This document shows positions 1 through 60,455 of a stretch of DNA of 64,000 bases, one piece after another. The stretch's first letter is position 1; the number at the start of each line of letters is the position of its first letter. Position numbers and translations under genes: made by a program. Origin of the DNA: Minisyncoccota bacterium (GTDB lineage Bacteria; Patescibacteriota; Minisyncoccia; Phycocordibacterales; UBA1006); contig DASWYC010000002.1 in assembly GCA_036405175.1 (NCBI GenBank), positions 603,373-667,372 on the forward strand, in the 5' to 3' direction. Under the pieces are notes generated by a model. The model did not search any database. It had not been told where the DNA came from and worked only from the letters and a program-made list of their open reading frames with translations.

Positions 1-1
1 A

Positions 2-1510
2 GTTGAGAGTCAAATTATTGAACGCCGCGAGAAAGGCTTAGTGCGCGATCCGATGCTTGATGTTGCGTATCAAGATCTTGAGCGTTTGCGTGATGAGCTT
101 CAGCAGTCAACAGAGCGCATGTTTAGTGTTGGGCTCTATATAACGCTCTATGCAGATACAGAAGCTGAACTGCAAAAAGCTGAAGATGAAATTAAATCAA
201 TGTTTGAAGAAAAGCTTATTTATATTAAGCCGGCAATTTTCCAACATGAATTTGGATTTAAGACCACTATTCCGCTTGGAATGGATACATTAAACGTGAC
301 CACCAATCTTAATACGGGTCCACTTTCCTCATTGTTTCCATTTATTTCAAGTGATTTGACTCAAAATAAAGGCATTTTGTATGGAATTAACCGTCACAAT
401 AACTCAATGATTTTGTTTGATCGCTTTACACAGCCAAACTATAATTCAGTAATTTTTGCAACGGCAGGAGCCGGAAAATCATTTGCTACCAAGCTTGAAG
501 TATTGCGTTCGCTTATTTTTGATACTGAGGTAATGATTATTGACCCAGAGCGTGAATATGAATTTCTTGCGAATGCAGTTGGTGGACGCTATATAAACAT
601 TTCTCTCTCTTCAGAGCACCACTTGAATCCATTTGATTTGCCAAAACCTCAGGAAGATGAAAATCCATCGGATGTGTTTCGTTCACATGTTATTAGTTTG
701 GTGGGACTATTTCGTATTTTACTTGGTGGATTAACGCCAGAAGAAGATTCTTTGGTTGATCGTGCACTTACCGAGACCTATGCGCTTCGTGATATTACCC
801 CAACAACTGACTTTATTAACAAAACACCACCACTTATTTCTGACTTTGAAATGGTGCTCGATAGTATGGAGGGAACCGAGTCGTTGTTGCGTCGTTTGAA
901 TAAATATACGCAGGGAACATGGTCAGGATTTTTAAATCAACCAACCAATGTGGCGCTTGATAATAAATTGGTAGTGTTTTCAATTCGTGATATGGAAGAA
1001 GAACTTAAACCAGCGGCAATGTATATTATTACGCATTTTATCTGGAATGCAGTTCGTCGCGAAATTAAAAAGCGCCTTTTGGTGGTAGACGAGGCATGGT
1101 GGATGATGAAGTCCGAAGATACAGCGTCATTCTTGTTTGGTATTGCAAAGCGTTGCCGTAAATATTATTTGGGACTTGCAACGATTACGCAAGACGTTGA
1201 AGATTTTCTTAAGTCTCCGTACGGAAAACCAATTATTTCCAACTCATCGATTCAGTTGTTGATGAAACAAGCACCAGCATCTATTGAATTGCTTCAACAA
1301 ACATTTAATCTTACGGATGAAGAGAAATTCTTGTTACTTGAATGTGGAAAAGGAGAGGGAATTTTCTTTGCAGGTAATCAGCATGCGGCAATTTCTGTTG
1401 TTGCATCGTATACTGAGGAGCAAATTGTTACTTCAGATCCATCACAGATTTTACGTATTAAAAACGAGCAACTACGCGCACGTTCATTGGAGCAAGAGAG
1501 GGTTTTTTAG
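2..1510 (+). CDS. virB4: VirB4/TrbE/CagE-family type IV secretion ATPase, C-terminal two-thirds (5' end lies outside window)
   Basis: Frame is open from base 2 (VESQIIERREKGL...). Walker A GAGKS, DEAWWMM Walker-B-like box, and conserved VirB4 C-terminal motifs are present. Stop at 1510. Confidence 0.8.
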   Translation, partial: VESQIIERREKGLVRDPMLDVAYQDLERLRDELQQSTERMFSVGLYITLYADTEAELQKAEDEIKSMFEEKLIYIKPAIFQHEFGFKTTIPLGMDTLNVTTNLNTGPLSSLFPFISSDLTQNKGILYGINRHNNSMILFDRFTQPNYNSVIFATAGAGKSFATKLEVLRSLIFDTEVMIIDPEREYEFLANAVGGRYINISLSSEHHLNPFDLPKPQEDENPSDVFRSHVISLVGLFRILLGGLTPEEDSLVDRALTETYALRDITPTTDFINKTPPLISDFEMVLDSMEGTESLLRRLNKYTQGTWSGFLNQPTNVALDNKLVVFSIRDMEEELKPAAMYIITHFIWNAVRREIKKRLLVVDEAWWMMKSEDTASFLFGIAKRCRKYYLGLATITQDVEDFLKSPYGKPIISNSSIQLLMKQAPASIELLQQTFNLTDEEKFLLLECGKGEGIFFAGNQHAAISVVASYTEEQIVTSDPSQILRIKNEQLRARSLEQERVF

Positions 1511-1513
1511 ATT

Positions 1514-1617
1514 GATTTATAAAAGACAGCGGGCTCTATCGGCCCTACGCTCGCGGTCTGATATATTCGCACGTACGTGCTCATTATCAGCCACTGCGCG
1601 ACTGTCTTTTATAAATC
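1514..1617. repeat. Long nested inverted repeat. Outer stem is 16 bp (gatttataaaagacag / ctgtcttttataaatc). Inner palindromes ctgata/tatcag and gcacgtacgtgc.
   Basis: Read directly in the sequence. Begins 4 nt after the virB4 stop. The track ORF 1284..1655 spans it and is probably spurious. Confidence 0.6.
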
Positions 1618-1701
1618 AAACTGAAGTTTCTTTAATTAAAACTTCACACTCTTAGAAAAAAAATCAGGTTTACAAAGATTACATACTATATAATAAAAAG
1701 A

Positions 1702-2127
1702 ATGAAACATGAAGTGCCACAATTTATTGATGTGAAAGATAAAGTAATCGGACCATTTACGTTTGATCAATTTCTGTATTTGTTAGGAGGTGGAGCACTC
1801 GCATATTTGAGTTTTCGTTTTATTATGCAGCCATTTGGATTTTTAGTTGCTGCTGCATTGGTTGGTCTTGCCGCAATGTTGGCGTTTTATAAAGTAAATA
1901 ATCGTCCATTTATTGATTTTCTTGCATCACTCGTCTCATATTACACGCGCGATCGATCATACTCATGGAAAAAACAAGAACAAAAAGCTGATCAAAAGAA
2001 AGTTGAAGTATCCACACCAGTATCTTTAGAACCTCAAACACGGTATGATATTACTACAGTAGCTCAAGGACTCGACGTTCTTGATCGAAGTCACGAATAT
2101 GAGCATCGCAACACAACAGTTTATTGA
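1702..2127 (+). CDS. Small 2-TM membrane protein, T4SS-associated by position (VirB3/PrgI-like role possible)
   Basis: 141 aa with two hydrophobic helices (LYLLGGGALAYLSF..., FLVAAALVGLAAMLAF). It sits between two VirB4-related ORFs. Confidence 0.5.
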   Translation: MKHEVPQFIDVKDKVIGPFTFDQFLYLLGGGALAYLSFRFIMQPFGFLVAAALVGLAAMLAFYKVNNRPFIDFLASLVSYYTRDRSYSWKKQEQKADQKKVEVSTPVSLEPQTRYDITTVAQGLDVLDRSHEYEHRNTTVY

Positions 2128-2731
2128 TATCAAAGAAATTCGCGATGGAGTAGTTATCTTACGCGATGGTTCTATGAAGTCAGTAATCATGACGAGCTCA
2201 ACCAACTTGGCGCTTAAATCTGCTGATGAGCAGCGTGCAACATTAATGAACTTTCAATCATTCCTTAATTCGCTTGAATATTCAACAGAAATTTTGGTGC
2301 AATCACGCAAGCTTGATATTTCTCCATATCTTGAAACGCTACAAGAACAAACTCGTAAAATTACCAATGATCTTTTGCGCATCCAATCACGAGAATACAT
2401 CGATTTTATTCAACTTTTAGGTGAGCGCATGAACCTAGTTACTAAATATTTTTACGTAACAATCTCATATTTTCCTTCATTTTTAACGCAAAATAAGAAG
2501 GGGGTGATTAATAATATTACAAGTGCGCTTACGGGGCCGGGGGATCAGCAGATGTCATACGAGGCATTTCAGGTAGAAAAAGCGCAATTAGACCAAAGAA
2601 CAGCCGTAATCGTGGGTGGTTTGGAGCGTATGGGACTTACTTCAAAGGCCTTAAATACCGAAGAACTCATTGTTTTATATCAAAATGTCTATAATCCTGG
2701 ACAGACCCAAAAAGCAATTTCTCAAAAATAG
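2081..2731 (+). CDS. Standalone VirB4 N-terminal-domain-like protein (216 aa), possibly a remnant or split copy
   Basis: The N-terminus QQFIDIKEIRDGVVILRDGSMKSVIMTSSTNLALKSADEQRATLMNFQSFL matches the characteristic start of Gram-positive-type VirB4/TcpF/Orf16 ATPases. No ATPase domain follows. Overlaps the previous ORF by 47 nt. Confidence 0.5.
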   Translation: MIEVTNMSIATQQFIDIKEIRDGVVILRDGSMKSVIMTSSTNLALKSADEQRATLMNFQSFLNSLEYSTEILVQSRKLDISPYLETLQEQTRKITNDLLRIQSREYIDFIQLLGERMNLVTKYFYVTISYFPSFLTQNKKGVINNITSALTGPGDQQMSYEAFQVEKAQLDQRTAVIVGGLERMGLTSKALNTEELIVLYQNVYNPGQTQKAISQK

Positions 2732-2767: not shown

Positions 2768-2796
2768 TTGACTTTAATATTGGATTATGATATAAT
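2768..2796 (+). promoter_or_regulatory. Sigma70-type promoter TTGACT-N17-TATAAT with extended TG
   Basis: ttgact at 2768..2773, tataat at 2791..2796, tg two nt upstream of the -10. It lies 80 nt upstream of the 2878 ORF. Confidence 0.6.
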
Positions 2797-2877: not shown

Positions 2878-4515
2878 ATGTTAAGAAAATTCTTTTTGTT
2901 GCTTCTCCCTCTAATGGGGTTGATGGAGCTAATCGCTGTTAAAAGTCTTTTTGCGCAAGCCCCGCTCGGTATAACAAAAAAAGACGGAAAAGATAGATAT
3001 TTGTATGTTGATAGCCCAAAATTCGACAAAGTTGTCGAAGTTGACGGGTTCTACAGCCAAAATGAAATTACCCCCGGAACTTCGCCACAAGACGTAGTTA
3101 AGGGAAATAGCGCTTTGGCTATAGGTAGCGTCCAAGGTCTCATGTGGACATTTCCTGATGGCAAAAAGTTTCCGGTAAACCAAATCCCGTTTAAAAACGA
3201 GATTTCGGCAGGAAGTAGGCCGATGACTCGCACAGTTCTTTTGTTAGATAAGGCCAAAGTTATTTATGTGAAGGAGACAGGTCAACCGCTCTATATAGCT
3301 GACTGCAATCGTTGCACTGCAAATTGTGATGATGAAGCTAAGGCAGTATGGAAAAACAGACCAAACCGTCTTCGCATGGTAGACAATGAAGCCTATTGGC
3401 GAGAGTTTATTGGTTTGGTGACCAGTCAAACACAAGGAGGTCCGTCTGGTGTTGTTACTGATGAAGGTCAGGGTAAGGTTGTTGTTATTCAAAATAATAC
3501 AACACCCCCGCCTACCAATAATCCTACAACCCAACAAACAGGACTGATTACTCAAGCGTCTGGCATGGGTTTGGTTGACTACTTTGCAGCTCTTGAATTG
3601 GCGCGCATTGAGGATGTTAAAAGACTCATGCATGAAAATATCGTCATTGATATGAATGGAAAGAATGCTGGACTTGCAGCACAATATCGTGCACAGGTAC
3701 GTGTCTTTGATGGGGTTGGACAGGCACCACAACAAGGTTCCATGATTACAACTTCTGTTTATGCTCAGCAACAAGGTCAGGGAAGAATGTATAGTGCTGA
3801 AGAAGTACAAAATATTCTTGCTCAACAAAACCAGCAGGCACAGAGAGACGATTATTGGAGGCAGCTTGAGTTTCAAGAAAATAAGAAGGCTCGCAACTGG
3901 GCTATCGGGACATCGATAGTTGGAACTCTTGGGCAACTTTTTATAGGAGGGATGGGTCTTTATCAGACAAATCAATTCTATAAAGCCATGGCTGGAGGAG
4001 TCGGATACAGTGGCTCTTCATCTGGTTATGGGCAAACACCTGCTATCAATATTTACAATAACAATAGTAATAAAAATAGCAACAATAACCCATTTAACTG
4101 GACACCTGCGCCTCCTTCGCAACCAAATACAGGAGGTAAGCCAAACAATCCTACAAGACCTCCATGGGTGAATCAGCATGAAAATTGGATGCCAAATGTA
4201 GGTGGACCTCTTTGGCAAGGAGATCCCTCATACAGACGTCCATGGACAAAATCCTCAGATGGACTTTGGGTTACTCCGGCCAATAACGGTCGAATCGGAT
4301 ACAACGATTTAGGTGAACCAGTAAAAGTAAATTATACGGATCCCGCTGCATATACGTGGCAAAACCCATATAATTCAACAGGTGTTACTCCAATTGGAAG
4401 TAATACCCAGGTTAAATGGGGTCAACCTGATAGCAACGGAAGCTTTTTTATTCCGCCAGTTACTACAACTGGAAATGGTAACTATATTCCACCCAAATCC
4501 AATTGGGGGAATTAA
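2878..4515 (+). CDS. Secreted low-complexity protein, Q/N/P/G/T-rich (545 aa)
   Basis: N-terminal signal peptide MLRKFFLLLLPLMGLMELIAVKSLFAQA. Long prion-like N/Q/P/G stretches follow (NNTTPPPTNNPTTQQTG; NNNSNKNSNNNPFNWTPAPPSQPNTGGKPNNPTRPP). Confidence 0.65.
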   Translation: MLRKFFLLLLPLMGLMELIAVKSLFAQAPLGITKKDGKDRYLYVDSPKFDKVVEVDGFYSQNEITPGTSPQDVVKGNSALAIGSVQGLMWTFPDGKKFPVNQIPFKNEISAGSRPMTRTVLLLDKAKVIYVKETGQPLYIADCNRCTANCDDEAKAVWKNRPNRLRMVDNEAYWREFIGLVTSQTQGGPSGVVTDEGQGKVVVIQNNTTPPPTNNPTTQQTGLITQASGMGLVDYFAALELARIEDVKRLMHENIVIDMNGKNAGLAAQYRAQVRVFDGVGQAPQQGSMITTSVYAQQQGQGRMYSAEEVQNILAQQNQQAQRDDYWRQLEFQENKKARNWAIGTSIVGTLGQLFIGGMGLYQTNQFYKAMAGGVGYSGSSSGYGQTPAINIYNNNSNKNSNNNPFNWTPAPPSQPNTGGKPNNPTRPPWVNQHENWMPNVGGPLWQGDPSYRRPWTKSSDGLWVTPANNGRIGYNDLGEPVKVNYTDPAAYTWQNPYNSTGVTPIGSNTQVKWGQPDSNGSFFIPPVTTTGNGNYIPPKSNWGN

Positions 4516-4827: not shown

Positions 4828-7800
4828 ATGAAAAAATTTATCTTAGGTTTGGTGTTCGTGGGAATTACCTTTTTGGGAGCCCAACATGCCAACGCACAAG
4901 TTTTTAATACCTATCCTGGAGATTGTCCAACAATCGGAGTAACTACGCTTGCTAATGCAAGTAATGGTTGTCGAGACTCTTCTATTGATGGTGTAAATCC
5001 TGGAGATATCCTTATTGTAGGGGTATATTTTCACAATACTTCACCAATCGATACAAGCGCAATCGTAAGAATGTCAGACCTCCAAGGAGGATCTGGTAAG
5101 TCTGTTCCTATATACGGAACCATTCAGCCAGCAGATGGTGCAGGGGCTGGTGGGCAAGGAATGGTGCATTTTAGTCAGACATCACGTCTTGAATATATGT
5201 ACACTAAAGTGTACTGGAATGGTCGTGATTTTGGTGGCGGTGGTGTTGAAACCGACCGTACCGGACGCGTATTTACCAGTGGAGAACCTCTCTATCTTGT
5301 TCCTGGAATGTGTTCAAATTGTGCCGATAAATTCATCGATCAGGGTGTTGTAAAAGCATATTATCGTGTTATTGGTCTTGATGCTGCCCCAATTGAGGAG
5401 GCTCCACAGTGGAATACTAACGGATATCCGCGTGTTGTATGTGCTGGAAACAACAATGGAACCGTTACGGTAAAAGCTTTTGGAAATGGAAAGCAAGTTC
5501 AATTTAAGAACTACTTTAATGATAATTGGGTAAATGAATCAGGAAATAACGAATATACTTGGTATAACGTTCCAAACGGAACATATAACACCGCAGTTCG
5601 CTTTGCGGGTTCAGGTAATTCACGTGGAGGTTCATTCCAAGTAAATTGTAATGTTAATAATCCAAACCCTGATCCAGATCCAGGAAATCCACCAAGCGGA
5701 AATTTTGAAAACTTTAAGGTAAAAAATAATACAACCTCTGATGGAATTGTGATTCGTTACACCAGCCCAAGCGGAGATAAGACTTTTGGTCTTAGTGGAA
5801 GTTCTGCTGGCGATGGAAGTCATATTAGTCCATGTATTACTGGTATCAAATCATCAGTAGTAAAAATCAGTGGAGTATCTTGGGCTTCATTTAGTATTAT
5901 TTCGTGTGATGGCGGTCCTTCAAATCCTAATCCAGATCCAGAGCCTCAACAAGGAACTCCTGAGTGGAATACCAATGGGTATCCTCGTGTAATTTGTAAT
6001 AACAATGGAACTGCAAACGTTACTATCAAAGCATATGGAAACGGAAAGCAGGTTCAGTTTAAGCATTACAGCAACGGTTCTTGGGTAACCGAGACAGGAA
6101 ATAATGAATATACATTCTATAATGTTCCTTCTAAATCGGGAGTATATACCACAGGAGTTCGTTTTGTTGGTTCAACTAATGAACGTCAAGGATTCTTTGC
6201 AGTAAGCTGTAACGATCAAGGGCCTACTAATCCCGAGCAAGCTCCTGACTGGAATGTAAATGGATATCCACGTGTGGTATGTAATACTAACGGAACTGCA
6301 ACAGTAACCGTTAAGGCATATGGAAATGGAAAACAAGTACAATTCCGTAACTACAACAACAATAACTGGGTAACTGAAACCGGAAACAACGAATATACCT
6401 GGTATAACGTTCCTTCTCGATCACAGGCATACGCAACTGCTGTTCGCTTTGTTGGTCAAACTGCTGAGCGCGCGGGATACTTTGCCGTAAATTGTAATGA
6501 TGAAGGTCCAACCAATCCAACTAACCAGTGTGCTATTTCTGATGCAAACTGGGATACTGCCGGTTATCCTCGCGTAGAATTCCTTTCTGCTACTTCAAAT
6601 GATGTAAGTGTAATTGTAAAAGCAAAGAATACTGGCGGAAAAACCGTTGAATTCTTTAACGCAGCAACACAGCGCTATGAAGTTGCTAACATGAGTGATA
6701 ATCGTATTATCTGGTCAAATATTATTGCTACCTGGCCAATCGCTGGGCAAAATGGAAACAAGAAATTGTACAGCACCTGGTTGCGATTCCAAGGATGTAC
6801 TGAGCGTGTACAAGGATGGTTTGAGGTAACTCCTCGCGAAGTTAGTGATAACACCACTAAACCAAGCGTAGAGACCCGTAGCCCAGAAGATGTATCACGT
6901 AACTCAGCAACTATTGTTGGAAACTTGCTTTCAAAGGGAGGTCTTTCAACTCAAACATACTTGTATTGGGGACGTCGTCAGGGAAGCACCTGTACCGCAT
7001 CGGATCTTATTTATAAGACTCCAGAAACCACCAACGCTAATACTGGAACCTTTAGTCGCTACATCTCAGGACTCTCAGCTGATACCTGGTATTGTTACCA
7101 AGCCGCAGCATCAAATAATAAGGGAGAAGTGAAGGGTGACATTCGTTCATTCAAAACAACTACTGATTACACACCAAGTGATGTAATTCGTATTGAAACT
7201 ACGTCAGCAACTAACATCTCTTCAGAATACGCAACACTTCGTGGAGAAGTAGTTGATACTGGAGATGCTAATACTGTTCGTACATGGTTTGAATTTGGAA
7301 ACAGCTCTAGTACCGTATCAAACGGAAATGGAACTCGCTACTCTGTATCAGGGGACTTCTATCGTGGAAATTCAATTTCACGTAGCGTAAGTGGACTTCA
7401 GCGAGGAACTCGCTACTACTTCCGTGCGTGTGGAGAAAACACTGTAGGTCAACAAGACTGTGGAGATGTTCTCAGCTTTGTTACTGAAGGAAATAACTCA
7501 ACTATTCAAGTTGATACCGAACAAGAATCAGATGTAAGCTATACTGCTGCTCGTATGCATGGACGTGTACGCGAAACTGGACGAAGCACTCGTCTTCGTA
7601 CTTGGTTTGAGTACAGCACCTCAGAAAACAATGTATACAACGGAAATGGATCACGTATCTATCTTGATAACAACTATGGATACTCACAAGGTCAGTCATT
7701 CTCACAAATGGTAACCGGTTTGCAAAGTAATACTCGTTACTTCTACCGCGCTTGTGGAGATAATACCGAAGGGGAGCGTGACTGTGGTGATGTTGAATCA

Positions 7801-8934
7801 TTTGTAACGCTTTCAAATAACTACAATCCAGTTCAACCAGAACGCCTTGGAACATTGGTTACTACACTTGCTGCAAGTTCAGTACGTCAGTACAATGCTC
7901 GCTTGAATGGATCATTCAATGCTCGTGATTGTTCTTCTGAATTGTGGTTTGAATACGGACGCACCAGCTCTCTTGGAGAAGTGGTAAATATTGGAACTCG
8001 TTCAGCATATGATCGTGGAGTGGTTTCTGCTGATATCTCAGGATTGAAGCCAAACACCACCTACTACTTCCGCATTGTTGGAAGTGGCTGTGGATCAATT
8101 GTTCGTGGAGCTACCAAGACCTTTAAGACTCCAAAAACTACCACAACCGTAGTAAATCCTCCTGTCAAACAAAAACCAGTAGTAAAAGTTATTCAAGTTA
8201 AGGAAGACGTAAATGTTGCTGCAGAAAGCATCTGTTCTCCTGATCTTGATCTTAAGATTGATAACAATCGTGATACTATTGGAAACCGTGAAGAATTTGA
8301 TTACGTAATTACCTATCAAAATCTTACGCAAACATACGTGCTCCGCGATATTGAAATGCAGGTAGAAATTCCTCCACAGCTTGAATTTGTAAGCTCATCA
8401 CGAGGAACCTACAACAAGGCATCTCACTCTCTCTTTATTTCACGCATGGATCTTAATCCATCACAGCGTGAGACATTCACCGTAACGGTGCGTGCTAAGA
8501 AGGGATTGGTAGAAGGTGATCTTATTGTTGCATCAGCAACTGCATCATTCATCAGTCCAACTACCGGAATCAACGATAGTTCAACCGACTTTGATTCTGA
8601 TGAATACTTGAATTCTCGTAATTCTAATGGATCATCAGACAATAGTAGTGATCGTTCACTATTTGGAAGTTCAGATAATGGTGGAAATGGATTCCTTCCA
8701 TCAAGTCTTGTTGGATGGTTGTCACTTATCTTCTTGGTATTCCTCTTCATTGCAGCACTTCGCTGGCTCTGGTTTGGAAAGAAGGGAAATGAATACAACT
8801 ATGCCTACGGACCATACGGAGTTCCTCCAACCAACAATGTGTATGGCGCACCGGTACAACCTGTAGCACCCGTTGCTCCGGTTCAACCAGTTCAGCCAAT
8901 CTACGTTCCATTTAATCCAAATCAACCAAGATAA
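4828..8934 (+). CDS. Giant cell-surface protein (1368 aa): signal peptide, 3-4 tandem ~95-aa modules, ~5 Fn3-like modules, DUF11-like repeat domain, C-terminal TM anchor and Pro-rich tail
   Basis: Signal peptide MKKFILGLVFVGITFLGAQHANA. WNTNGYPRV...GNGKQVQF...GNNEYT.YNVP...VRF.G...CN is repeated three times with PNPDPDP linkers. Repeated W(F/Y)E(F/Y)G...YY(F)R..G.N..G..DCGDV.SF.T modules follow. TM helix GWLSLIFLVFLFIAAL, then an APVQPVAPVAPVQPVQP tail. Confidence 0.8.
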   Translation: MKKFILGLVFVGITFLGAQHANAQVFNTYPGDCPTIGVTTLANASNGCRDSSIDGVNPGDILIVGVYFHNTSPIDTSAIVRMSDLQGGSGKSVPIYGTIQPADGAGAGGQGMVHFSQTSRLEYMYTKVYWNGRDFGGGGVETDRTGRVFTSGEPLYLVPGMCSNCADKFIDQGVVKAYYRVIGLDAAPIEEAPQWNTNGYPRVVCAGNNNGTVTVKAFGNGKQVQFKNYFNDNWVNESGNNEYTWYNVPNGTYNTAVRFAGSGNSRGGSFQVNCNVNNPNPDPDPGNPPSGNFENFKVKNNTTSDGIVIRYTSPSGDKTFGLSGSSAGDGSHISPCITGIKSSVVKISGVSWASFSIISCDGGPSNPNPDPEPQQGTPEWNTNGYPRVICNNNGTANVTIKAYGNGKQVQFKHYSNGSWVTETGNNEYTFYNVPSKSGVYTTGVRFVGSTNERQGFFAVSCNDQGPTNPEQAPDWNVNGYPRVVCNTNGTATVTVKAYGNGKQVQFRNYNNNNWVTETGNNEYTWYNVPSRSQAYATAVRFVGQTAERAGYFAVNCNDEGPTNPTNQCAISDANWDTAGYPRVEFLSATSNDVSVIVKAKNTGGKTVEFFNAATQRYEVANMSDNRIIWSNIIATWPIAGQNGNKKLYSTWLRFQGCTERVQGWFEVTPREVSDNTTKPSVETRSPEDVSRNSATIVGNLLSKGGLSTQTYLYWGRRQGSTCTASDLIYKTPETTNANTGTFSRYISGLSADTWYCYQAAASNNKGEVKGDIRSFKTTTDYTPSDVIRIETTSATNISSEYATLRGEVVDTGDANTVRTWFEFGNSSSTVSNGNGTRYSVSGDFYRGNSISRSVSGLQRGTRYYFRACGENTVGQQDCGDVLSFVTEGNNSTIQVDTEQESDVSYTAARMHGRVRETGRSTRLRTWFEYSTSENNVYNGNGSRIYLDNNYGYSQGQSFSQMVTGLQSNTRYFYRACGDNTEGERDCGDVESFVTLSNNYNPVQPERLGTLVTTLAASSVRQYNARLNGSFNARDCSSELWFEYGRTSSLGEVVNIGTRSAYDRGVVSADISGLKPNTTYYFRIVGSGCGSIVRGATKTFKTPKTTTTVVNPPVKQKPVVKVIQVKEDVNVAAESICSPDLDLKIDNNRDTIGNREEFDYVITYQNLTQTYVLRDIEMQVEIPPQLEFVSSSRGTYNKASHSLFISRMDLNPSQRETFTVTVRAKKGLVEGDLIVASATASFISPTTGINDSSTDFDSDEYLNSRNSNGSSDNSSDRSLFGSSDNGGNGFLPSSLVGWLSLIFLVFLFIAALRWLWFGKKGNEYNYAYGPYGVPPTNNVYGAPVQPVAPVAPVQPVQPIYVPFNPNQPR
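5401..6528 (+). repeat. Intragenic tandem DNA repeats (~285 nt, approximate copies at 5401..5690, 5955..6240, 6241..6528)
   Basis: The near-identical protein modules imply a nucleotide repeat. Copies 2 and 3 are directly adjacent. Confidence 0.6.
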
Positions 8935-43717: not shown

Positions 43718-44107
43718 ATGAAAGGATTTTTTGGAAACATCGAAGAACTTACCAAAGAGAATGAGAATTTTAGAAAGGTGCTCTATACAGCGCAGGGAAT
43801 GCAATTGGTACTAATGTCACTCAAGCCAGGTGAAGAAATCGGAGGAGAGACTCACGACATTGATCAATTCATTCGTATTGAACGAGGAGAGGGTGTTGTA
43901 ATCATGGGTGAGGATCAGAGATCAATTGAAAATGAATTTGCTGTTATTATCCCACGCGGCATGTTTCATAACGTGATCAACAAAGGTGACACAGCTATGA
44001 AGCTCTATTCAATCTACGCAACACCGGAACATAAAGATGGAACCATCCATGCAACAAAAGCTGATGCAGAAGTTGAAGAGCACTTTGATGGAAAGACCAC
44101 TGAATAA
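43718..44107 (+). CDS. Cupin-domain protein
   Basis: Two-motif cupin pattern G(E)ETHDIDQFIRIERGEG...PRGMFHNVINKG. Confidence 0.65.
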   Translation: MKGFFGNIEELTKENENFRKVLYTAQGMQLVLMSLKPGEEIGGETHDIDQFIRIERGEGVVIMGEDQRSIENEFAVIIPRGMFHNVINKGDTAMKLYSIYATPEHKDGTIHATKADAEVEEHFDGKTTE

Positions 44108-44112
44108 TCTTA

Positions 44113-44138
44113 AAAAGAAACCCTAGGGTTTCTTTTTA
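44113..44138 (+). terminator. Rho-independent terminator
   Basis: aaagaaaccc-tag-ggtttcttt followed by ttaatt. Confidence 0.8.
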
Positions 44139-44229
44139 ATTTAGATGAAATTTATACACATTTTGTTAACAAGAACTTATGGACAAATTTGCATTTTTTC
44201 AAGATTATTAGTGTATAATAAACAGTAAT

Positions 44230-46818
44230 ATGGTGAGCCAAGATGTTATTGATTTCATAAAAGGACAGCGCGAAGAGGGAACTTCTGATGAAGAAATTTT
44301 CAGAGCGCTTAATGTGATTGGTGGATGGGATAAAGAGGATTTTGACGATGCGGTGCGAGAGATTGAAGCACTTGAACGTGGTGCTGCAACACCTGCGCCA
44401 ACGCCAATGCCAAGCGTAACTGAAACCACAACCGTGCAAACTACGCAAACTATGCCAGTGGCTGCAGCTCCATTTGAGATGCCTGCTGCACCTATGGGGG
44501 TGGTTACTCCCGCGGCGCCCGTACTCACCACAATGACTCATGAGGTAACAACCACTCAAACAACTCCAGCAGCTCCAATTGCATCTACCTGGACTCCTCC
44601 TGCTATGCCAGAAGTTGCTATACCAACTCCGGTTGCTGCTCCCATTGCACCAGTGAGTGAATCACCATTTACTGCAAATGCCGCTGCACCAATTTCAGTA
44701 CCAGCTGTTGATGCTAAGCCAGCAACGCCGTTTGCTGCAAATCTTGATACCAGTCATCCAACATTTGGCATCTCATTAGCTAATATGGCTCAGAAGAGTA
44801 AGGGGGTAACCATGGCACCAGGAAGTGCTGCGCCGGCGGCACCGGCACCAGTCGGTGATCAAACGTTTGCATCAATGTATGGAGCCGCTCCTATGGCTAC
44901 ACCAGCTGGAATGAGTGCGCCACTTGGTGCTCCTCAATCAGCTCCAGAGATATCTTCACCAAGCCCATTTGCTGCACCAGGATCTCCTGCTGCAACCCCC
45001 GCATTTTCATATGTTCCTAAAACAGAAATGGGAGCACCTATGGCTCAAGCTCCTGCACCAGCAGTGTCAGCCTGGCCAACTCAACCAATTGCTCCACAGG
45101 CTCCAGCTGCAGCAACTCCATCAGCTGGTGGCTATGTAAATCCTAACTACGGTGCTGATCTTGCAAGTATGGCTACTCCAGGATTTGGACGTCACCCATC
45201 AGAAAACAGTGGACCAGCGGCAGCAGCAATACCGGGAACTCAGCCACCAACAACTCCTACAGGGCCAAACTACAAAAAGATCATTACGTTTATTTTCCTA
45301 TTAATTGCAATTGGGGTTGCTGGATATTTCTTTGTTAAATCTCAAGAGGGAATGGCAAGCACATTGATGAGCAAGATTTCATTTCTTAATAACAAAGATC
45401 GTGATTTCTTAAAGAGTGTTTCAAATAGCAAGCTTTTTTCTAAATATCCTGCAATGATTGTGAAGACAAACTTTACCGGAGTACTTACCTTGAAGAGCCC
45501 AACCAAAGAGTCATTTGCAGCACTTATGGGAGTTTCTCCTCAGATGATTGATGATCAGCAAAAGATTTCATACACCGCAACGCGCGATCTTGTGCGATTT
45601 GGATCAACCCACCATGAGCATGCAGAAGGGGAGCTCACTATTGGTTCAGTAGTTATTCCATTTGAAATGGTAAAGATTGATCCCGTACTCTATATTCGTC
45701 GTACCGATGAGCCACTTCCAGGGCAAACCCATGGTATTGGAGCATTTCCATCAAATGTATGGTTTATGATTGATCCTCGTCACTTTGATGATCTTCAATT
45801 TGATTCAGTGAAAATTGCATCATTTACTGGCGATGCCTTGCCGGCACTCTTTAAGAAAATGCTCAAGACGCTTGATAAGCAAGGAGATAATGTGAACATT
45901 GCTAAGAGTGATGCAAATCCAAATCGTGTACAGTTTGTATACGATGGCGCATTGGCAACAACCGTTGATAAATTTACGCTCGGTGATTGGATTCAGGAAA
46001 ACTTTGGATCAGCGGTGTCGCCAAGTCTTACCAAAGGACTTACTGATTTGATGATTAATGAAAAAGTTTCAAATATTGAAATGGGTGTAGATGAGTCAAC
46101 CAACGATCCTCTTACGCTTAGCTACAAAACTTCATGGTCAGGAAGTCAGACATTGGGAATGACCATTGATCTTACGGGAACCGTTTCTCATACGATCTCA
46201 TCACGTCTCCAAAGCACTAACTCTATGATCGATCAGCCAGGAGCGCCAACAAACAATGGTGATGAGCGTATCTATCAGTTGTTGCGTGGTGAGGCAATCG
46301 TAAATCCAGTAATTCCTACTGGTCCTCAAAAACCAGGAGATGCACCAGCTGCTCCAATGGGTGATACCGTGATTGATGTAATTGGTGCACTTACACGTAA
46401 TCGTCAGTCTGATTTGGATAATCAAATCCAGAGCAATCTTTCAAAAGTAACAAGCTTGGCAAATGCGTATAAAAAAGAAAAGAAGACCTATGCGGGAATG
46501 TGTCAGGAAAATCAGGCACTTAAGCTCATCATTAATGACACCAAAAATATGAGCGACTCGCTTACCTGTGATGATGGAGAAACGGGGTATCGTGTAACGG
46601 TTGCGTCGGTAAAAAACACTGATCAACTCTACTGTATTTCTGATAAAACCAAGAAGGTGATTGGGATTACATCACCAGAAGAACCGTACACATTTAATTG
46701 TAAAAGTGTAGAGGTTGCAGCTGATACAGCCGCTGAAATAAAACAGGTAACTACAGAAAAGAAAGTATCGCCAACAGAAACAAAGACTATTCCAGAAACT
46801 ACCGTAAAAGCCTCATAA
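44230..46818 (+). CDS. Large bitopic protein (862 aa): ~50-aa N-terminal domain, ~300-aa Pro/Ala/Thr-rich low-complexity region, one TM helix, ~500-aa C-terminal domain with Cys pairs
   Basis: TM helix IITFIFLLIAIGVAGYFFV near aa 345. The P/A-rich region explains the spurious antisense ORFs at 44152..44559. Confidence 0.6.
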   Translation: MVSQDVIDFIKGQREEGTSDEEIFRALNVIGGWDKEDFDDAVREIEALERGAATPAPTPMPSVTETTTVQTTQTMPVAAAPFEMPAAPMGVVTPAAPVLTTMTHEVTTTQTTPAAPIASTWTPPAMPEVAIPTPVAAPIAPVSESPFTANAAAPISVPAVDAKPATPFAANLDTSHPTFGISLANMAQKSKGVTMAPGSAAPAAPAPVGDQTFASMYGAAPMATPAGMSAPLGAPQSAPEISSPSPFAAPGSPAATPAFSYVPKTEMGAPMAQAPAPAVSAWPTQPIAPQAPAAATPSAGGYVNPNYGADLASMATPGFGRHPSENSGPAAAAIPGTQPPTTPTGPNYKKIITFIFLLIAIGVAGYFFVKSQEGMASTLMSKISFLNNKDRDFLKSVSNSKLFSKYPAMIVKTNFTGVLTLKSPTKESFAALMGVSPQMIDDQQKISYTATRDLVRFGSTHHEHAEGELTIGSVVIPFEMVKIDPVLYIRRTDEPLPGQTHGIGAFPSNVWFMIDPRHFDDLQFDSVKIASFTGDALPALFKKMLKTLDKQGDNVNIAKSDANPNRVQFVYDGALATTVDKFTLGDWIQENFGSAVSPSLTKGLTDLMINEKVSNIEMGVDESTNDPLTLSYKTSWSGSQTLGMTIDLTGTVSHTISSRLQSTNSMIDQPGAPTNNGDERIYQLLRGEAIVNPVIPTGPQKPGDAPAAPMGDTVIDVIGALTRNRQSDLDNQIQSNLSKVTSLANAYKKEKKTYAGMCQENQALKLIINDTKNMSDSLTCDDGETGYRVTVASVKNTDQLYCISDKTKKVIGITSPEEPYTFNCKSVEVAADTAAEIKQVTTEKKVSPTETKTIPETTVKAS

Positions 46819-53456: not shown

Positions 53457-56204
53457 TTATTCTCGCTTAAATCGTCCAAAGATTTCTGCTTCAACTTCAG
53501 CCCGTATGTGGCCATGTTTAAGTTGAGATAATTCTTTAAGCTTATCAATATTATCCCGATTACCTTGAGGAAGCTCTAGCGTGTGGATATTAAATGCTCG
53601 TTGAGGAACACCGCCAGACAGCATAGAAACATATGCATTTCGGTTCTTCTGTTTAATAATATCTTCCTTGGTAAACACTGGGTCAAGACGCTTTTGTAGC
53701 TGTTCTGCATCGTCAGGGTCAACACGGAAAATTGCCATGGTTCCAACGTTTCCAAATACTGCATTTCTAATACCATCATCAAGCTGGCGCAAATACTGGT
53801 GAGCAACATTCAATGACAATCTATATTTACGAGCTTCAGACAAGATAGATGCAATTGATGGAGTTGTAACATTCTGGAACTCATCTAAGTACAGATAAAA
53901 ATCTTTATGTTGTTGTCCATATGCTGCACCAGCACGCCCGAGTGCTGCCATTTGGATTTTGTTCACGAGCACCAATCCAATCAAACTTGCATTGAGTTCT
54001 CCAAGGCGACCCTTAGAAAGATTTACAATTAAAATCTTTCCTTGATCCATGATCTCGCGAATATTTATTGAAGATTTTTGCTGCAAAATAATGGGGCGCA
54101 AAAATTCATTAGTAATGAATGGGTCAAAGAAGCGGGTAACATAGGGAACAAAGTTTTCGAGTGCTTGATCACCTTTAGCCTTTTTGGCATTCTCAAAGAA
54201 CTGATTAATGATAGGATTTTTACATTTTGCTAATTTTGCTTCCCGGAATGCCTCATCACCCAAAACACGGGTAATTTCAAGCAAAGTGCTTCCAGACTCA
54301 GGATCTTCCATTACGAGCATTGCTGAGTTTTTAAAGTATTGTTCAAATGCAGGACCAGCTGTTGCTTTCATATCAAAGAGCTTGTTAAAAATCACCATAA
54401 GCTCATCAATTACTAACGTCTTTTGTTCGGGGAATAGAGGATCATATTCCAACATGTTAAGCCCCATGGGTCGTTCGGTATTTGCAGGATCAAAGTAAAT
54501 CACATCATCAATACGATGCGGTGGAATCAAAGAAAGAATCGTTTGTGCGTCAGTTCCGTGTGGATCAATATAGCAAACACCTTCGCCGTTATTAATATCC
54601 TGGAGAATCATGGTCAAAAGCGTTCCGGTCTTTCCGGTTCCTGTTTGTCCAATTGCATAAAAGTGGCGCATGCGATCATCCTTTGGATAATGAATTTCAG
54701 TATCTTTACCAGCATTATTATTAATGCCTAAAAGAATTCCTTCTTGAACAAGCTCAAGCGGAGCTGGGGCAGTTTTTGCTTCATTGAATTTAACTTCTGG
54801 GATAAGGTTCTGGCTGAGTTGAGGGAAGTGGAAAATAGTTGCCAACTCTTCTGAGCTTAGAATAAATTTACTGTTGCCTCCAAATTCGCGGAAGATAAAT
54901 TTGGTGATAAAGGTTTCCATGCTTTTATCTGGAACACGGCTCACGACATATGAGTTTCCCGAAGGGTGACGTAAGTGCATGATTGATCCACCAACTTCAG
55001 TAATCAGCGCATCAGACTTTTGCTTGCTTTGGGTACACACTACAATGTTCATTGAAACGCGGAACAAGTGGTGACCAAGTTTTTTCTGAAGGAGACCTTG
55101 GCGCTCAGAGTCATTATGATTAAGTGAATCTTTTTTGTCCTCATCAGATCTACCACTTAAAAAGAGGGAGTTGAGCGCTTTTGAAACAGCATGTTGAGAC
55201 GCTTCTTCTATTGCTTCTTTCATCTTTTTTCCTTTTTGAAGCAACTTATTCACTTCTTCAAGTTCTTTTCGATCTTCTTTCTTTTCAGTTGCTACCGTAA
55301 TTTGAATCGTGGCGCCTTCCGTTTCTTTTTCAAGACGAGACAACATATTAACAATTACCTGAAGCGGATCAGTTTCATAATCGTTATATGAGGGAAGGGT
55401 ATATGATGAATGTTCTTTAAGGTGAACTTCTGCAGCTGCAAGATATCCAGACTCCAAAAACATATTGGTATCATCAAGAAGTTCTTTTACTTGAATGGTT
55501 GGGAAAAATCCAATGATCGATTTCTCAATTGCTGTTTTTGATTCTTTTGGTACGGCAACAAAAAACACAATTTGTCCACGTGAAGGAATGAATGAGATTT
55601 CAAAATTAATACTTTCGTTTTCGCCAAGCATTGAAGATATAGAGGTATACACTTGTTCCATGGTTGCAGCTAATGCTTTGTGAGATGTTCGTTCGCCTTG
55701 ATGATCAGGAGCAATAGTAATTTCAAGAAGTGTCTTGTGAGTTGGTTCAAAAAAACGGGACTCAATCTTAAGTTCTTGCCCATTCATTTTTTGATATGCG
55801 CGAACATACTGGATAAGAAAGCGATGAAAATCATCTTCAATATGAGGATTATGAAGACCTTCAACAAGTGCCAGTGTTTTTGCAATGCCATGCGCTTCTA
55901 AAAATGAAAAGAGCACCTGCATGTTTTGGTCATGAGATTCCGGAGTAAGAAGCTGTTGAACTTCTTGAAAGAGTGGTTGATGCTGTGCAACTTGTTCCTG
56001 GGGAAGCTGAGGAATAGTTTGTTGAACAATCTCTTTTGATTTTACTACTTGTTCCTTAATGGGGAGGTTTTTAAATTGAGGCTGTTTAAATGCTTCATGA
56101 TTACGATAGTATTCAAGCTCCTGTTGAATGTGTGCAGGAATTTTTTCCGGGGTGGGTGCTGATGGTGCGGGTGTAAAATTAGGATTAAGAGGAATCTCAT
56201 TCAT
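53457..56204 (-). CDS. VirD4/TraG/TraD-like type IV coupling protein ATPase with a ~450-aa N-terminal extension
   Basis: Walker A YAIGQTGTGKTGTLLTM, Walker B FYLYLDEFQNV, and conserved C-terminal T4CP region. The N-terminal half is Q/E/K-rich and lacks the usual two-TM anchor. Confidence 0.7.
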   Translation of the reverse strand: MNEIPLNPNFTPAPSAPTPEKIPAHIQQELEYYRNHEAFKQPQFKNLPIKEQVVKSKEIVQQTIPQLPQEQVAQHQPLFQEVQQLLTPESHDQNMQVLFSFLEAHGIAKTLALVEGLHNPHIEDDFHRFLIQYVRAYQKMNGQELKIESRFFEPTHKTLLEITIAPDHQGERTSHKALAATMEQVYTSISSMLGENESINFEISFIPSRGQIVFFVAVPKESKTAIEKSIIGFFPTIQVKELLDDTNMFLESGYLAAAEVHLKEHSSYTLPSYNDYETDPLQVIVNMLSRLEKETEGATIQITVATEKKEDRKELEEVNKLLQKGKKMKEAIEEASQHAVSKALNSLFLSGRSDEDKKDSLNHNDSERQGLLQKKLGHHLFRVSMNIVVCTQSKQKSDALITEVGGSIMHLRHPSGNSYVVSRVPDKSMETFITKFIFREFGGNSKFILSSEELATIFHFPQLSQNLIPEVKFNEAKTAPAPLELVQEGILLGINNNAGKDTEIHYPKDDRMRHFYAIGQTGTGKTGTLLTMILQDINNGEGVCYIDPHGTDAQTILSLIPPHRIDDVIYFDPANTERPMGLNMLEYDPLFPEQKTLVIDELMVIFNKLFDMKATAGPAFEQYFKNSAMLVMEDPESGSTLLEITRVLGDEAFREAKLAKCKNPIINQFFENAKKAKGDQALENFVPYVTRFFDPFITNEFLRPIILQQKSSINIREIMDQGKILIVNLSKGRLGELNASLIGLVLVNKIQMAALGRAGAAYGQQHKDFYLYLDEFQNVTTPSIASILSEARKYRLSLNVAHQYLRQLDDGIRNAVFGNVGTMAIFRVDPDDAEQLQKRLDPVFTKEDIIKQKNRNAYVSMLSGGVPQRAFNIHTLELPQGNRDNIDKLKELSQLKHGHIRAEVEAEIFGRFKRE

Positions 56205-59626: not shown

Positions 59627-59759
59627 GCTTTCTCTCAACATAGACAATATTGTTAAAAGCAAAAGCACTACCTCTTAGTCCAGGTGGTGTTTTTGTTTGC
59701 CTAAAAACTGAACAGGTTATGTTTTGCATTTTAGTTTCTATTGGTATACTAGGAATGTT

Positions 59760-60455
59760 ATGTCATCAAACAACGTAGGAATTGCACTCATTGTAATTGT
59801 GGCGTTAGCGATTGCTGGCCTTGTATTTACTCATAACAAAAAAACAGCAACGACTACTACCACTCAAACAACTACCACAACAGAAACTCAAACTGATGCA
59901 TTTAGCACAACACAACAAACATCAGATACTACTACTAATACCACTACACCAACAACACCTATGACTACACCTCAAGTAACTAAAGCCGTGTTTACCACTA
60001 ATCTTGGCGCATTCACCGTTGAGCTTTATGGAGCACAAACCCCTAAGACGGTAGAAAACTTTGCCAAGCTTGTTACCAGTGGATTTTATACCGATACTAA
60101 ATTCCATCGTGTTATCAAAGGATTCATGATCCAGGGAGGAGATCCACTTTCTAAGGATGATTCTCAGAAGCAATTGTGGGGAACGGGAGGACCTGGATAC
60201 AAGTTTGAAGATGAATTTGTTAAGGAGCTTTCAAACGTTAAAGGAACACTTTCAATGGCAAATGCCGGACCTGGAACCAACGGAAGTCAGTTCTTTGTTA
60301 ACACTGCAGACAATACCTTCCTTGATGGAAAGCACACTGTGTTTGGAAAAGTTCTTGAAGGAATGGATGTGATTGAGAAAATCTCAAACACTAAGACCGA
60401 TTCGACCGATAAGCCTGTGACAGCTGTAGTTATTAAATCAATTGAGGTTCTTTAA
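59760..60455 (+). CDS. ppiB: Cyclophilin-type peptidyl-prolyl isomerase, membrane-anchored with a Thr-rich linker
   Basis: TM helix, then T/Q-rich linker TTTTTQTTTTTETQT..., then cyclophilin motifs FHRVIKGFMIQGGDP and GTLSMANAGPGTNGSQFF. Start taken at MSSNNVG (59760). Confidence 0.85.
   Translation: MSSNNVGIALIVIVALAIAGLVFTHNKKTATTTTTQTTTTTETQTDAFSTTQQTSDTTTNTTTPTTPMTTPQVTKAVFTTNLGAFTVELYGAQTPKTVENFAKLVTSGFYTDTKFHRVIKGFMIQGGDPLSKDDSQKQLWGTGGPGYKFEDEFVKELSNVKGTLSMANAGPGTNGSQFFVNTADNTFLDGKHTVFGKVLEGMDVIEKISNTKTDSTDKPVTAVVIKSIEVL

Follow-up and report, generated by a model that had tools for sequence, protein, structure and literature searches.

A probable two-gene VirB4 at the core of an origin-proximal type IV secretion system in a lineage of Paceibacteria

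Why would a small gene that reads like the start of a Gram-positive VirB4 ATPase, with no ATPase domain of its own, lie just downstream of another VirB4-type gene? The question is posed by the opening of a 64-kb stretch of contig DASWYC010000002.1 (hereafter the window; all coordinates count from its first letter). Three open reading frames (ORFs) on the + strand begin the window, at 2-1510, 1702-2127 and 2081-2731 as first read. The original prediction, made from the sequence alone, described them as a complete VirB4 whose 5' end falls outside the window, a 141-amino-acid (aa) VirB3/PrgI-like protein with two transmembrane segments, and an orphan 216-aa ORF that could be a decayed duplicate, a genuinely split gene or a regulatory N-domain paralogue. 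The ORF list bears out the three positions and the truncated 5' end. We consider it likely, with a probability of roughly 0.8, that this module is the core of a chromosomal, origin-proximal type IV secretion system (T4SS) of Patescibacteria (class Paceibacteria), in which VirB4 is encoded by two genes, one for the small protein, which we call TrsD-like, and one for a short ATPase.

The upstream gene is a VirB4-type ATPase, as predicted. The 3' 1.5 kb that lies within the window (2-1510, + strand, 502 codons) matches PF19044 P-loop_TraG at 5.7e-25 as well as AAA_10, its translation carries the Walker A motif GAGKS, and in a 92%-identical orthologue (L001) 360 residues match the structure of the VirB4 C-terminal domain, PDB 4AG5, at 3.1e-44. 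It is not a complete VirB4. Full-length proteins identical to the window fragment measure 592 aa (P0123, NCBI call) or 608 aa (P0124, Logan call). Against NF045971, the profile of the CD1110 VirB4-like ATPase (752 positions, cut-off 325), the 608-aa protein scores 386 bits and the L001 orthologue 377 bits, and residues 23-566 of the former occupy only profile positions 179-730; the single-chain, full-length CD1110 architecture, with positions 1 to ~170 included, is not found in the window ATPase. The best 120 homologues of the ATPase are likewise short (506-636 aa), and none of them carries PF26593, the TraC-like domain found in homologues of the small ORF.

What the ATPase lacks is what its small neighbor encodes. 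The TrsD-like ORF (210 aa) aligns to CD1110 positions 1-120 and to positions 104-285 of the Mycoplasma-type VirB4_plasma profile (894 positions; E 3.8e-9), on which the 608-aa ATPase occupies 283-891. As a control, the 942-aa PrgI-VirB4 fusion of Vescimonas spans CD1110 11-732 and VirB4_plasma 28-893 in one chain; residues 131-255 of that fusion align with the TrsD-like ORF and residues 337-925 with the ATPase, so the resemblance of the small ORF to a Gram-positive VirB4 N terminus, which had been read from its first residues, is upheld by two profiles and a fused protein. BLASTP of the TrsD-like ORF against the window ATPase found no similarity and hence no paralogy, and a profile search of the 64-kb window returned no second VirB4, TrsD-like or PrgI match. 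Because their profile coordinates are complementary, the two genes are read here as encoding consecutive parts of one VirB4; because the ATPase is without exactly the TrsD-like segment, nothing appears to be duplicated; and because the upstream VirB4 is incomplete, the small ORF is no orphan. Alignment to the profiles indicates, in short, that the TrsD-like ORF and the short ATPase are consecutive, non-overlapping parts of a single VirB4.

The same division is ubiquitous among relatives. We assembled a reference set of 80 Patescibacteria loci (L007-L086), 79 of which hold both a TrsD-like gene and an ATPase gene and 75 of which hold all three genes. The two VirB4 pieces are separate ORFs in 79 of 79 loci, so that none of these loci shows the small ORF fused to a full ATPase, and together with the complementary profile positions this favors the option of a genuinely split gene. 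PrgI, the TrsD-like gene and the ATPase gene lie in that order on one strand in 72 of the 75 complete loci, the TrsD-like gene usually stops 1-10 nucleotides (nt) before the ATPase gene starts, and the two are in different reading frames in 60 of the 79 loci. In the other 19 (L009, L011, L021 and L022 among them) they share a frame, and in several of these a lone stop codon, in most cases TAA, parts the pieces; a fused VirB4 could conceivably arise there by occasional readthrough. The window departs from this arrangement in one respect. Its order is ATPase, PrgI, TrsD-like, where the usual order is PrgI, TrsD-like, ATPase, and the window's order occurs in 0 of the 75 complete reference loci. 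It is common only to close relatives of the window: one, with a 76%-identical TrsD-like protein, shows it in three independent assemblies, and another has a TrsD-like protein 94% identical to that of the window.

Might the TrsD-like protein be no structural piece of the ATPase but an independent regulatory or adaptor subunit, a diverged paralogue of the N-domain that modulates or gates the T4SS, perhaps through competition for PrgI/VirB3 or through recruitment of substrates? Several data would suit such a role. The sequence of the TrsD-like protein diverges far more quickly than that of the ATPase (45-50% versus 70-73% identity across Paceibacteria), in the window's lineage its gene is uncoupled from that of the ATPase and stays with PrgI, and TrsD homologues of Gracilibacteria are mostly not near virB4 (PMC12102498). 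The strictly complementary profile coordinates, however, argue against it, since the absence of overlap is what a fission predicts and a paralogue does not; fused forms hold the segment once, at the same position; and the two genes are near-universally adjacent, at the short spacing and in the 72 of 75 collinear loci given above. The paralogue option is thus not supported, as the ATPase is without the very segment that the ORF would have copied, and we regard a separate regulatory subunit as quite unlikely.

A second reading holds that VirB4 was once duplicated and that the second copy lost its ATPase domain, which left the 216-aa ORF as a decaying remnant or pseudogene. In its favor, the ORF resembles the N terminus of VirB4, has no ATPase domain and follows another VirB4-type gene. 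The conservation of the ORF makes this scarcely credible. A database search with the 216-aa ORF returned 1,930 homologues, and the best 120 of these are all 209-247 aa long (~212), all from Patescibacteria/Parcubacteria and all with PF26593 TraC-like; an identical 210-aa protein in public records has the same PF26593 match (E <= 1e-5). Relatives of the ORF occur in at least 592 species genomes of Patescibacteria in GTDB, at the same ~212 aa, so the ORF is indeed kept at full length elsewhere. An alignment of 32 homologues has 32 invariant columns, and the ratio of nonsynonymous to synonymous substitution rates (dN/dS) is 0.056 and 0.094 for two orthologues. That alignment, along with the 210-aa length of the identical public protein, indicates that translation probably starts at ATG 2099, giving 210 aa (2099-2731, + strand), rather than at the TTG at 2081 of the maximal, 216-aa ORF. 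The upstream ATPase wants the TrsD-like segment, no ATPase remnant lies downstream and no second VirB4 lies in the window, and a terminator-like hairpin and then a new promoter-like site follow directly after the ORF. Constant length, invariant columns and low dN/dS mark the TrsD-like ORF, as judged from these comparisons, as a conserved, selected and free-standing gene and not a decaying fragment. Two Pfam matches of the 216-aa ORF, to Cyclin_N and Nup54, were rejected as noise; the Pfam copy scanned was without PF26593.

Structure prediction adds matches of modest score. An AlphaFold2 model of the TrsD-like ORF has a mean predicted local distance difference test (pLDDT) score of 74, and the best 14 Foldseek matches of this model in the PDB are all TrwK/VirB4 of the R388 T4SS (probability 0.89-1.0). 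A phmmer search of the ORF against PDB sequences returned no match.

Several observations weigh against a two-gene VirB4 built in this way. The match of the TrsD-like ORF to CD1110 is weak (E 0.003), and the stronger one, at 3.8e-9, is to the Mycoplasma-type model. The Foldseek matches to TrwK/VirB4 are modest, with E values of 1e-3 to 4e-2 and template modeling (TM) scores of 0.35-0.43, the target range being not reported. NF041427, the NCBIfam model of TrsD/TraD, gives the ORF 15.6 bits (E 0.011; cut-off 200), where TrsD of pGO1, run as a control, scores 227.6 bits. An hhalign comparison of the family alignment with pGO1 TrsD is also weak (E 0.006, probability 6%). Finally, the tight coupling of the TrsD-like and ATPase genes that characterizes other loci has been lost in the window's lineage, which implies that adjacency in the PrgI-TrsD-ATPase order is not required. 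Given the NF041427 score and the hhalign result, orthology with staphylococcal TrsD would be remote. The name TrsD-like, as these scores suggest, denotes a position and a role and not close orthology, and the ORF falls outside the narrow NF041427 model.

Homology, complementarity, conservation, purifying selection and synteny of the two pieces are direct observations, and they allow a mechanism to be proposed for the two-gene VirB4. The ~210-aa TrsD-like protein would correspond to the first ~200 residues of a canonical Gram-positive VirB4, and the ~600-aa ATPase to the rest of it, from the second half of the N-terminal domain through the RecA-like ATPase domain. By analogy with R388 structures and with the VirB3-VirB4 biology summarised in PMC12102498, the two chains and the VirB3-like PrgI would assemble at the membrane into an equivalent of a single-chain or VirB3-fused VirB4, with the TrsD-like piece supplying the membrane-proximal, VirB3-contacting part. 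The exact complementarity thereby gives TrsD a testable role, as the detached N-terminal, VirB3-side piece of VirB4.

In nearly every relative the TrsD-like and ATPase genes stand last and are coupled in translation. In the window's narrow lineage a rearrangement would have put the ATPase gene first, and the permuted order that resulted implies that the VirB4 pieces need not be collinear. Elsewhere in Paceibacteria a cluster of ~12 genes is strongly conserved, in the order F8-F9-F5-F4-PrgI-TrsD-VirB4-F12-F0-F0-F6 (F numbers denote accessory families), beside yidC-rnpA-dnaA (e.g., L029 2423-14315). Most families of this cluster are without a Pfam match, and T4SS_pilin is hit weakly (E 0.002) by one member of F0. 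The F8-F9-F5-F4 upstream block went undetected by its profiles both in the window and across 17 kb of a close relative. More broadly, profiles of the accessory families conserved in the 80 reference loci (F4, F5, F8, F9, F12 and others) had no matches in the window or close relatives other than F0 and F6, upstream of the ATPase. In reference locus L057 (4485-15090) the genes are permuted differently (TrsD-like, ATPase, PrgI) and the accessory blocks on both sides are inverted; the cluster has accordingly been rearranged more than once.

The second peculiarity of this lineage is the spacer that now parts the ATPase gene from PrgI and the TrsD-like gene (1511-1701, 191 nt, + strand). Within it, the two arms of a perfect 18-bp inverted repeat (1512-1529 / 1602-1619) flank 72 nt, and a small hairpin follows; the spacer is predicted to fold as RNA with a minimum free energy of -53.3 kcal/mol (z -6.45). 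Between two lineages the spacer is 98.4% identical, while their other spacers are 68-80% identical and the flanking coding DNA is 88-91% identical (third positions 71-78%; synonymous divergence, dS, 0.37-0.69). No Rfam family matches the spacer, the JGI metagenomes hold no match to it, and neither a further copy of it nor one of the 14-nt overlap described below occurs in the window or in 99 loci.

Assemblies behave unusually at this spacer. Nine of the nine k=31 Logan contigs fetched for the lineage, from at least six sequencing runs, either end at 1556 or begin at 1543, a pattern that implies a repeat or else a junction made by recombination. There are two possible causes of the breaks: the 46-nt stretch 1527-1572 may be repeated elsewhere in the samples, or there may be alternative junctions that share the 14-nt core CCCTACGCTCGCGG. 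A simple invertible segment between the 18-bp inverted repeats was considered and rejected, as the contig end-points do not fit it. These breaks are the one point in favor of an artefact, whether a frameshift or mis-join of a single VirB4 or a chimeric contig behind the odd order, an explanation that is extremely improbable given that the window and two independent SPAdes contigs (L098 and L099) cross the spacer with identical sequence, that the permuted order recurs in three independent assemblies of the 76%-identical relative, and that the split is present, in varying reading frames, in all 79 related loci with both genes.

Any role of the spacer would be a further step beyond the two-gene VirB4 itself. 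One possibility, which we hold tentatively and consider rather doubtful, is that the two-chain VirB4 has been rewired here, such that a strongly folded element of ~110 nt uncouples the ATPase, transcriptionally or post-transcriptionally, from PrgI and the TrsD-like protein; the element might be a novel cis-regulatory RNA by which subunit stoichiometry is set, or a site-specific recombination or repeat element behind the permuted order.

How does the module compare with known systems? The T4SS of Patescibacteria has been catalogued with VirB4, TrsD, PrgI/VirB3, VirB6 and VirB2-like pilins (Quinonero-Coronel et al. 2025, PMC12102498), and its VirB4s form a clade related to the MPF-FATA class. 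In that survey TrsD outnumbers every other component, with 2,272 homologues, of which 1,664 adjoin virB4, as counted with the MPF-FATA (CONJScan/MacSyFinder) hidden Markov model profile of TrsD; Gracilibacteria, whose TrsD homologues lie mostly away from virB4, have been mentioned above. PrgI/VirB3 is common, clusters are often near dnaA/dnaN, and TrsD is described as remotely homologous to the N-terminal portion of VirB4, without an assigned function (PMC12102498). Epibiotic growth of Ca. Southlakia epibionticum requires its T4SS genes (Wang et al. 2023, PMC10633639), and the TrsD and PrgI homologues of this organism are listed as essential (PMC12102498; PMC10633639). The window shares with this described system the three core genes, the dnaA/dnaN neighborhood, a distant candidate type IV coupling protein (T4CP), the separate ~210-aa TrsD-like ORF and its adjacency to virB4, and its ATPase is 70-73% identical to hundreds of Paceibacteria VirB4s. 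It differs in gene order, in the inverted F0/F6 genes upstream, in the conserved structured spacer after the ATPase and in that F8-F9-F5-F4 were undetected. Because PMC12102498 describes exactly such a system, the window module is an ordinary member of the described Patescibacteria T4SS, unusual in its gene order; what is specific to its lineage is the permuted order and the unusually conserved 191-nt structured spacer, and these account for the small interest that remains in the locus as such.

Neither PMC12102498 nor PMC10633639 states that the Patescibacteria VirB4 is without the segment that TrsD supplies, and the word "split" is in neither text. The exact complementarity of TrsD and the short Patescibacteria VirB4 is, in our view, a modest addition to this literature. 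Its practical meaning is that ORFs of the TrsD-like type in candidate phyla radiation genomes should be read not as orphan fragments or pseudogenes but as half of a two-gene VirB4, one that belongs to a T4SS reported to be essential for the epibiotic lifestyle in the single cultivated model.

Comparable divisions of VirB4 exist on plasmids. The trsC-trsD-trsE genes of the MPF-FATA type on pGO1/pSK41-type plasmids of Staphylococcus aureus also encode a small VirB3-like membrane protein, a TrsD of ~220 aa and a short VirB4/DUF87 ATPase (in pGO1, TrsC 135 aa, TrsD 227 aa and the DUF87 ATPase 672 aa), but sequence similarity to the window proteins is marginal, and pGO1, a conjugative plasmid, carries a relaxase and has its T4CP alongside, whereas the window system is chromosomal and its candidate T4CP remote. 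The best plasmid matches to the TrsD-like ORF, at 26-29% identity over 90% of its length, are on pGspE55-1 of Geobacillus subterraneus and pJFP838A of Clostridium perfringens, which encode PrgI, a 318- or 312-aa protein and a 636- or 641-aa DUF87 ATPase, respectively. These plasmids divide VirB4 at the same point, with the 318-aa protein occupying CD1110 positions 2-174, and the ATPases align end to end, at 6.6e-79 (Geobacillus) and 2e-72 (C. perfringens). Unlike the window ORF, the N-terminal pieces on these plasmids have an extra C-terminal tail of ~90 aa and a leader of ~40 aa, and the plasmids keep the canonical gene order, with sigma factor, TlpA and M23 peptidase genes nearby. As a side observation, the Bacillota plasmids with a split VirB4 are large and "non-mobilizable" and share a sigma-70 factor and a TlpA-like disulfide reductase, to which Geobacillus adds a type II secretion F-family gene and the M23 peptidase; their loci may represent a distinct, non-conjugative T4SS-like system. 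Single-chain or VirB3-fused VirB4s (CD1110; the 942-aa PrgI-VirB4 of Vescimonas pMM35_02; TrwK of R388, PDB 7O41/7O43/8RTB) have the same domains in the same linear order in one polypeptide, whereas the window has two or three polypeptides and a gene order that departs from the domain order.

PrgI (1702-2127, + strand, 141 aa) sits between the ATPase and TrsD-like genes and has two hydrophobic segments in its translation; it passes the gathering threshold of PF12666 (33.3 bits, cut-off 27), and a profile built from 72 Patescibacteria PrgI neighbors finds it at 1.7e-38, which confirms its assignment to the VirB3/PrgI-like class. Its end overlaps the TrsD-like start at 2099 by 29 nt. A consensus scan places a terminator-like hairpin over the TrsD-like stop (2729-2748, + strand, with a T-rich tail to 2757) and a strong promoter-like site for the next gene at 2768-2796 (+ strand); from these two predicted elements 3' of the TrsD-like gene, the ATPase-PrgI-TrsD transcription unit probably ends at the hairpin, 2729-2757. 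The window is chromosomal, with polA, tsaE, ruvA, ligA, eight tRNAs and two aminoacyl-tRNA synthetase genes (one of class II D/K/N type and one proS-like), and its source, a Candidatus Paceibacterota metagenome-assembled genome, accords with the reduced, episymbiont-type genome that had been suspected. Upstream in the window's lineage lie dnaN and dnaA (- strand), then rnpA, yidD, yidC and jag (+ strand), three minus-strand genes and the ATPase, with dnaN, dnaA, rnpA, yidD and yidC 5-10 kb from the latter; this neighborhood indicates that the core genes of the system cluster close to the origin. Of the three minus-strand genes, those of 517 and 324 aa correspond to genes of 517 and 325 aa in the close relative L001 that are members of accessory families F6 and F0, and the third (762 aa) has a weak SLT_2 match.

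A VirD4-like gene some 50 kb away, the basis on which T4SS components had been called dispersed and unusually so, is present as a 914-aa ORF with a long N-terminal extension (53457-56204, - strand), 51 kb from the module. It matches PF12696 TraG-D_C (26.1 bits, cut-off 22) and, weakly, TrwB_AAD_bind; matches to the Walker-A regions of CD1115, SXT_TraD and TrbC, at 1e-8 to 1e-10, lie far below the family cut-offs (CD1115 38 bits versus 250). The VirD4-like gene is thus remote, but the ATPase, PrgI, the TrsD-like gene and three accessory genes are clustered by dnaA/dnaN, and remoteness is usual in the phylum: T4CP genes near virB4 number 148 of 5,713 in Patescibacteria (PMC12102498), so that a remote VirD4-like gene is the norm there and not a departure. 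Relaxases, which are rare in the phylum (103 Patescibacteria genomes; PMC12102498), were absent from a general Pfam scan of 24 window ORFs that included no search aimed at them.

Two large secreted or surface proteins are encoded just downstream of the module, at 2878-4515 (545 aa) and 4828-8934 (1368 aa), and a promoter-like site precedes each of them. Close relatives differ greatly in the length of the first (545, 784, 646 and 636 aa), which has no family match; the second has repeated modules of ~100 aa, fn3/PhoD_N-like domains and a C-terminal membrane anchor. Neither has a T4SS family match in Pfam or NCBIfam, and since no link to the T4SS emerged from these searches we do not count them as parts of the module. 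Farther along, 44001-46000 is the sole stretch of the window with raised GC content (0.447) and negative GC skew, and it coincides with an 862-aa ORF (44230-46818) that has no Pfam match. A 243-aa ORF at 59724-60455 has a weak match, at E 2e-4, to the profile of F6, one of the accessory families of the T4SS cluster.

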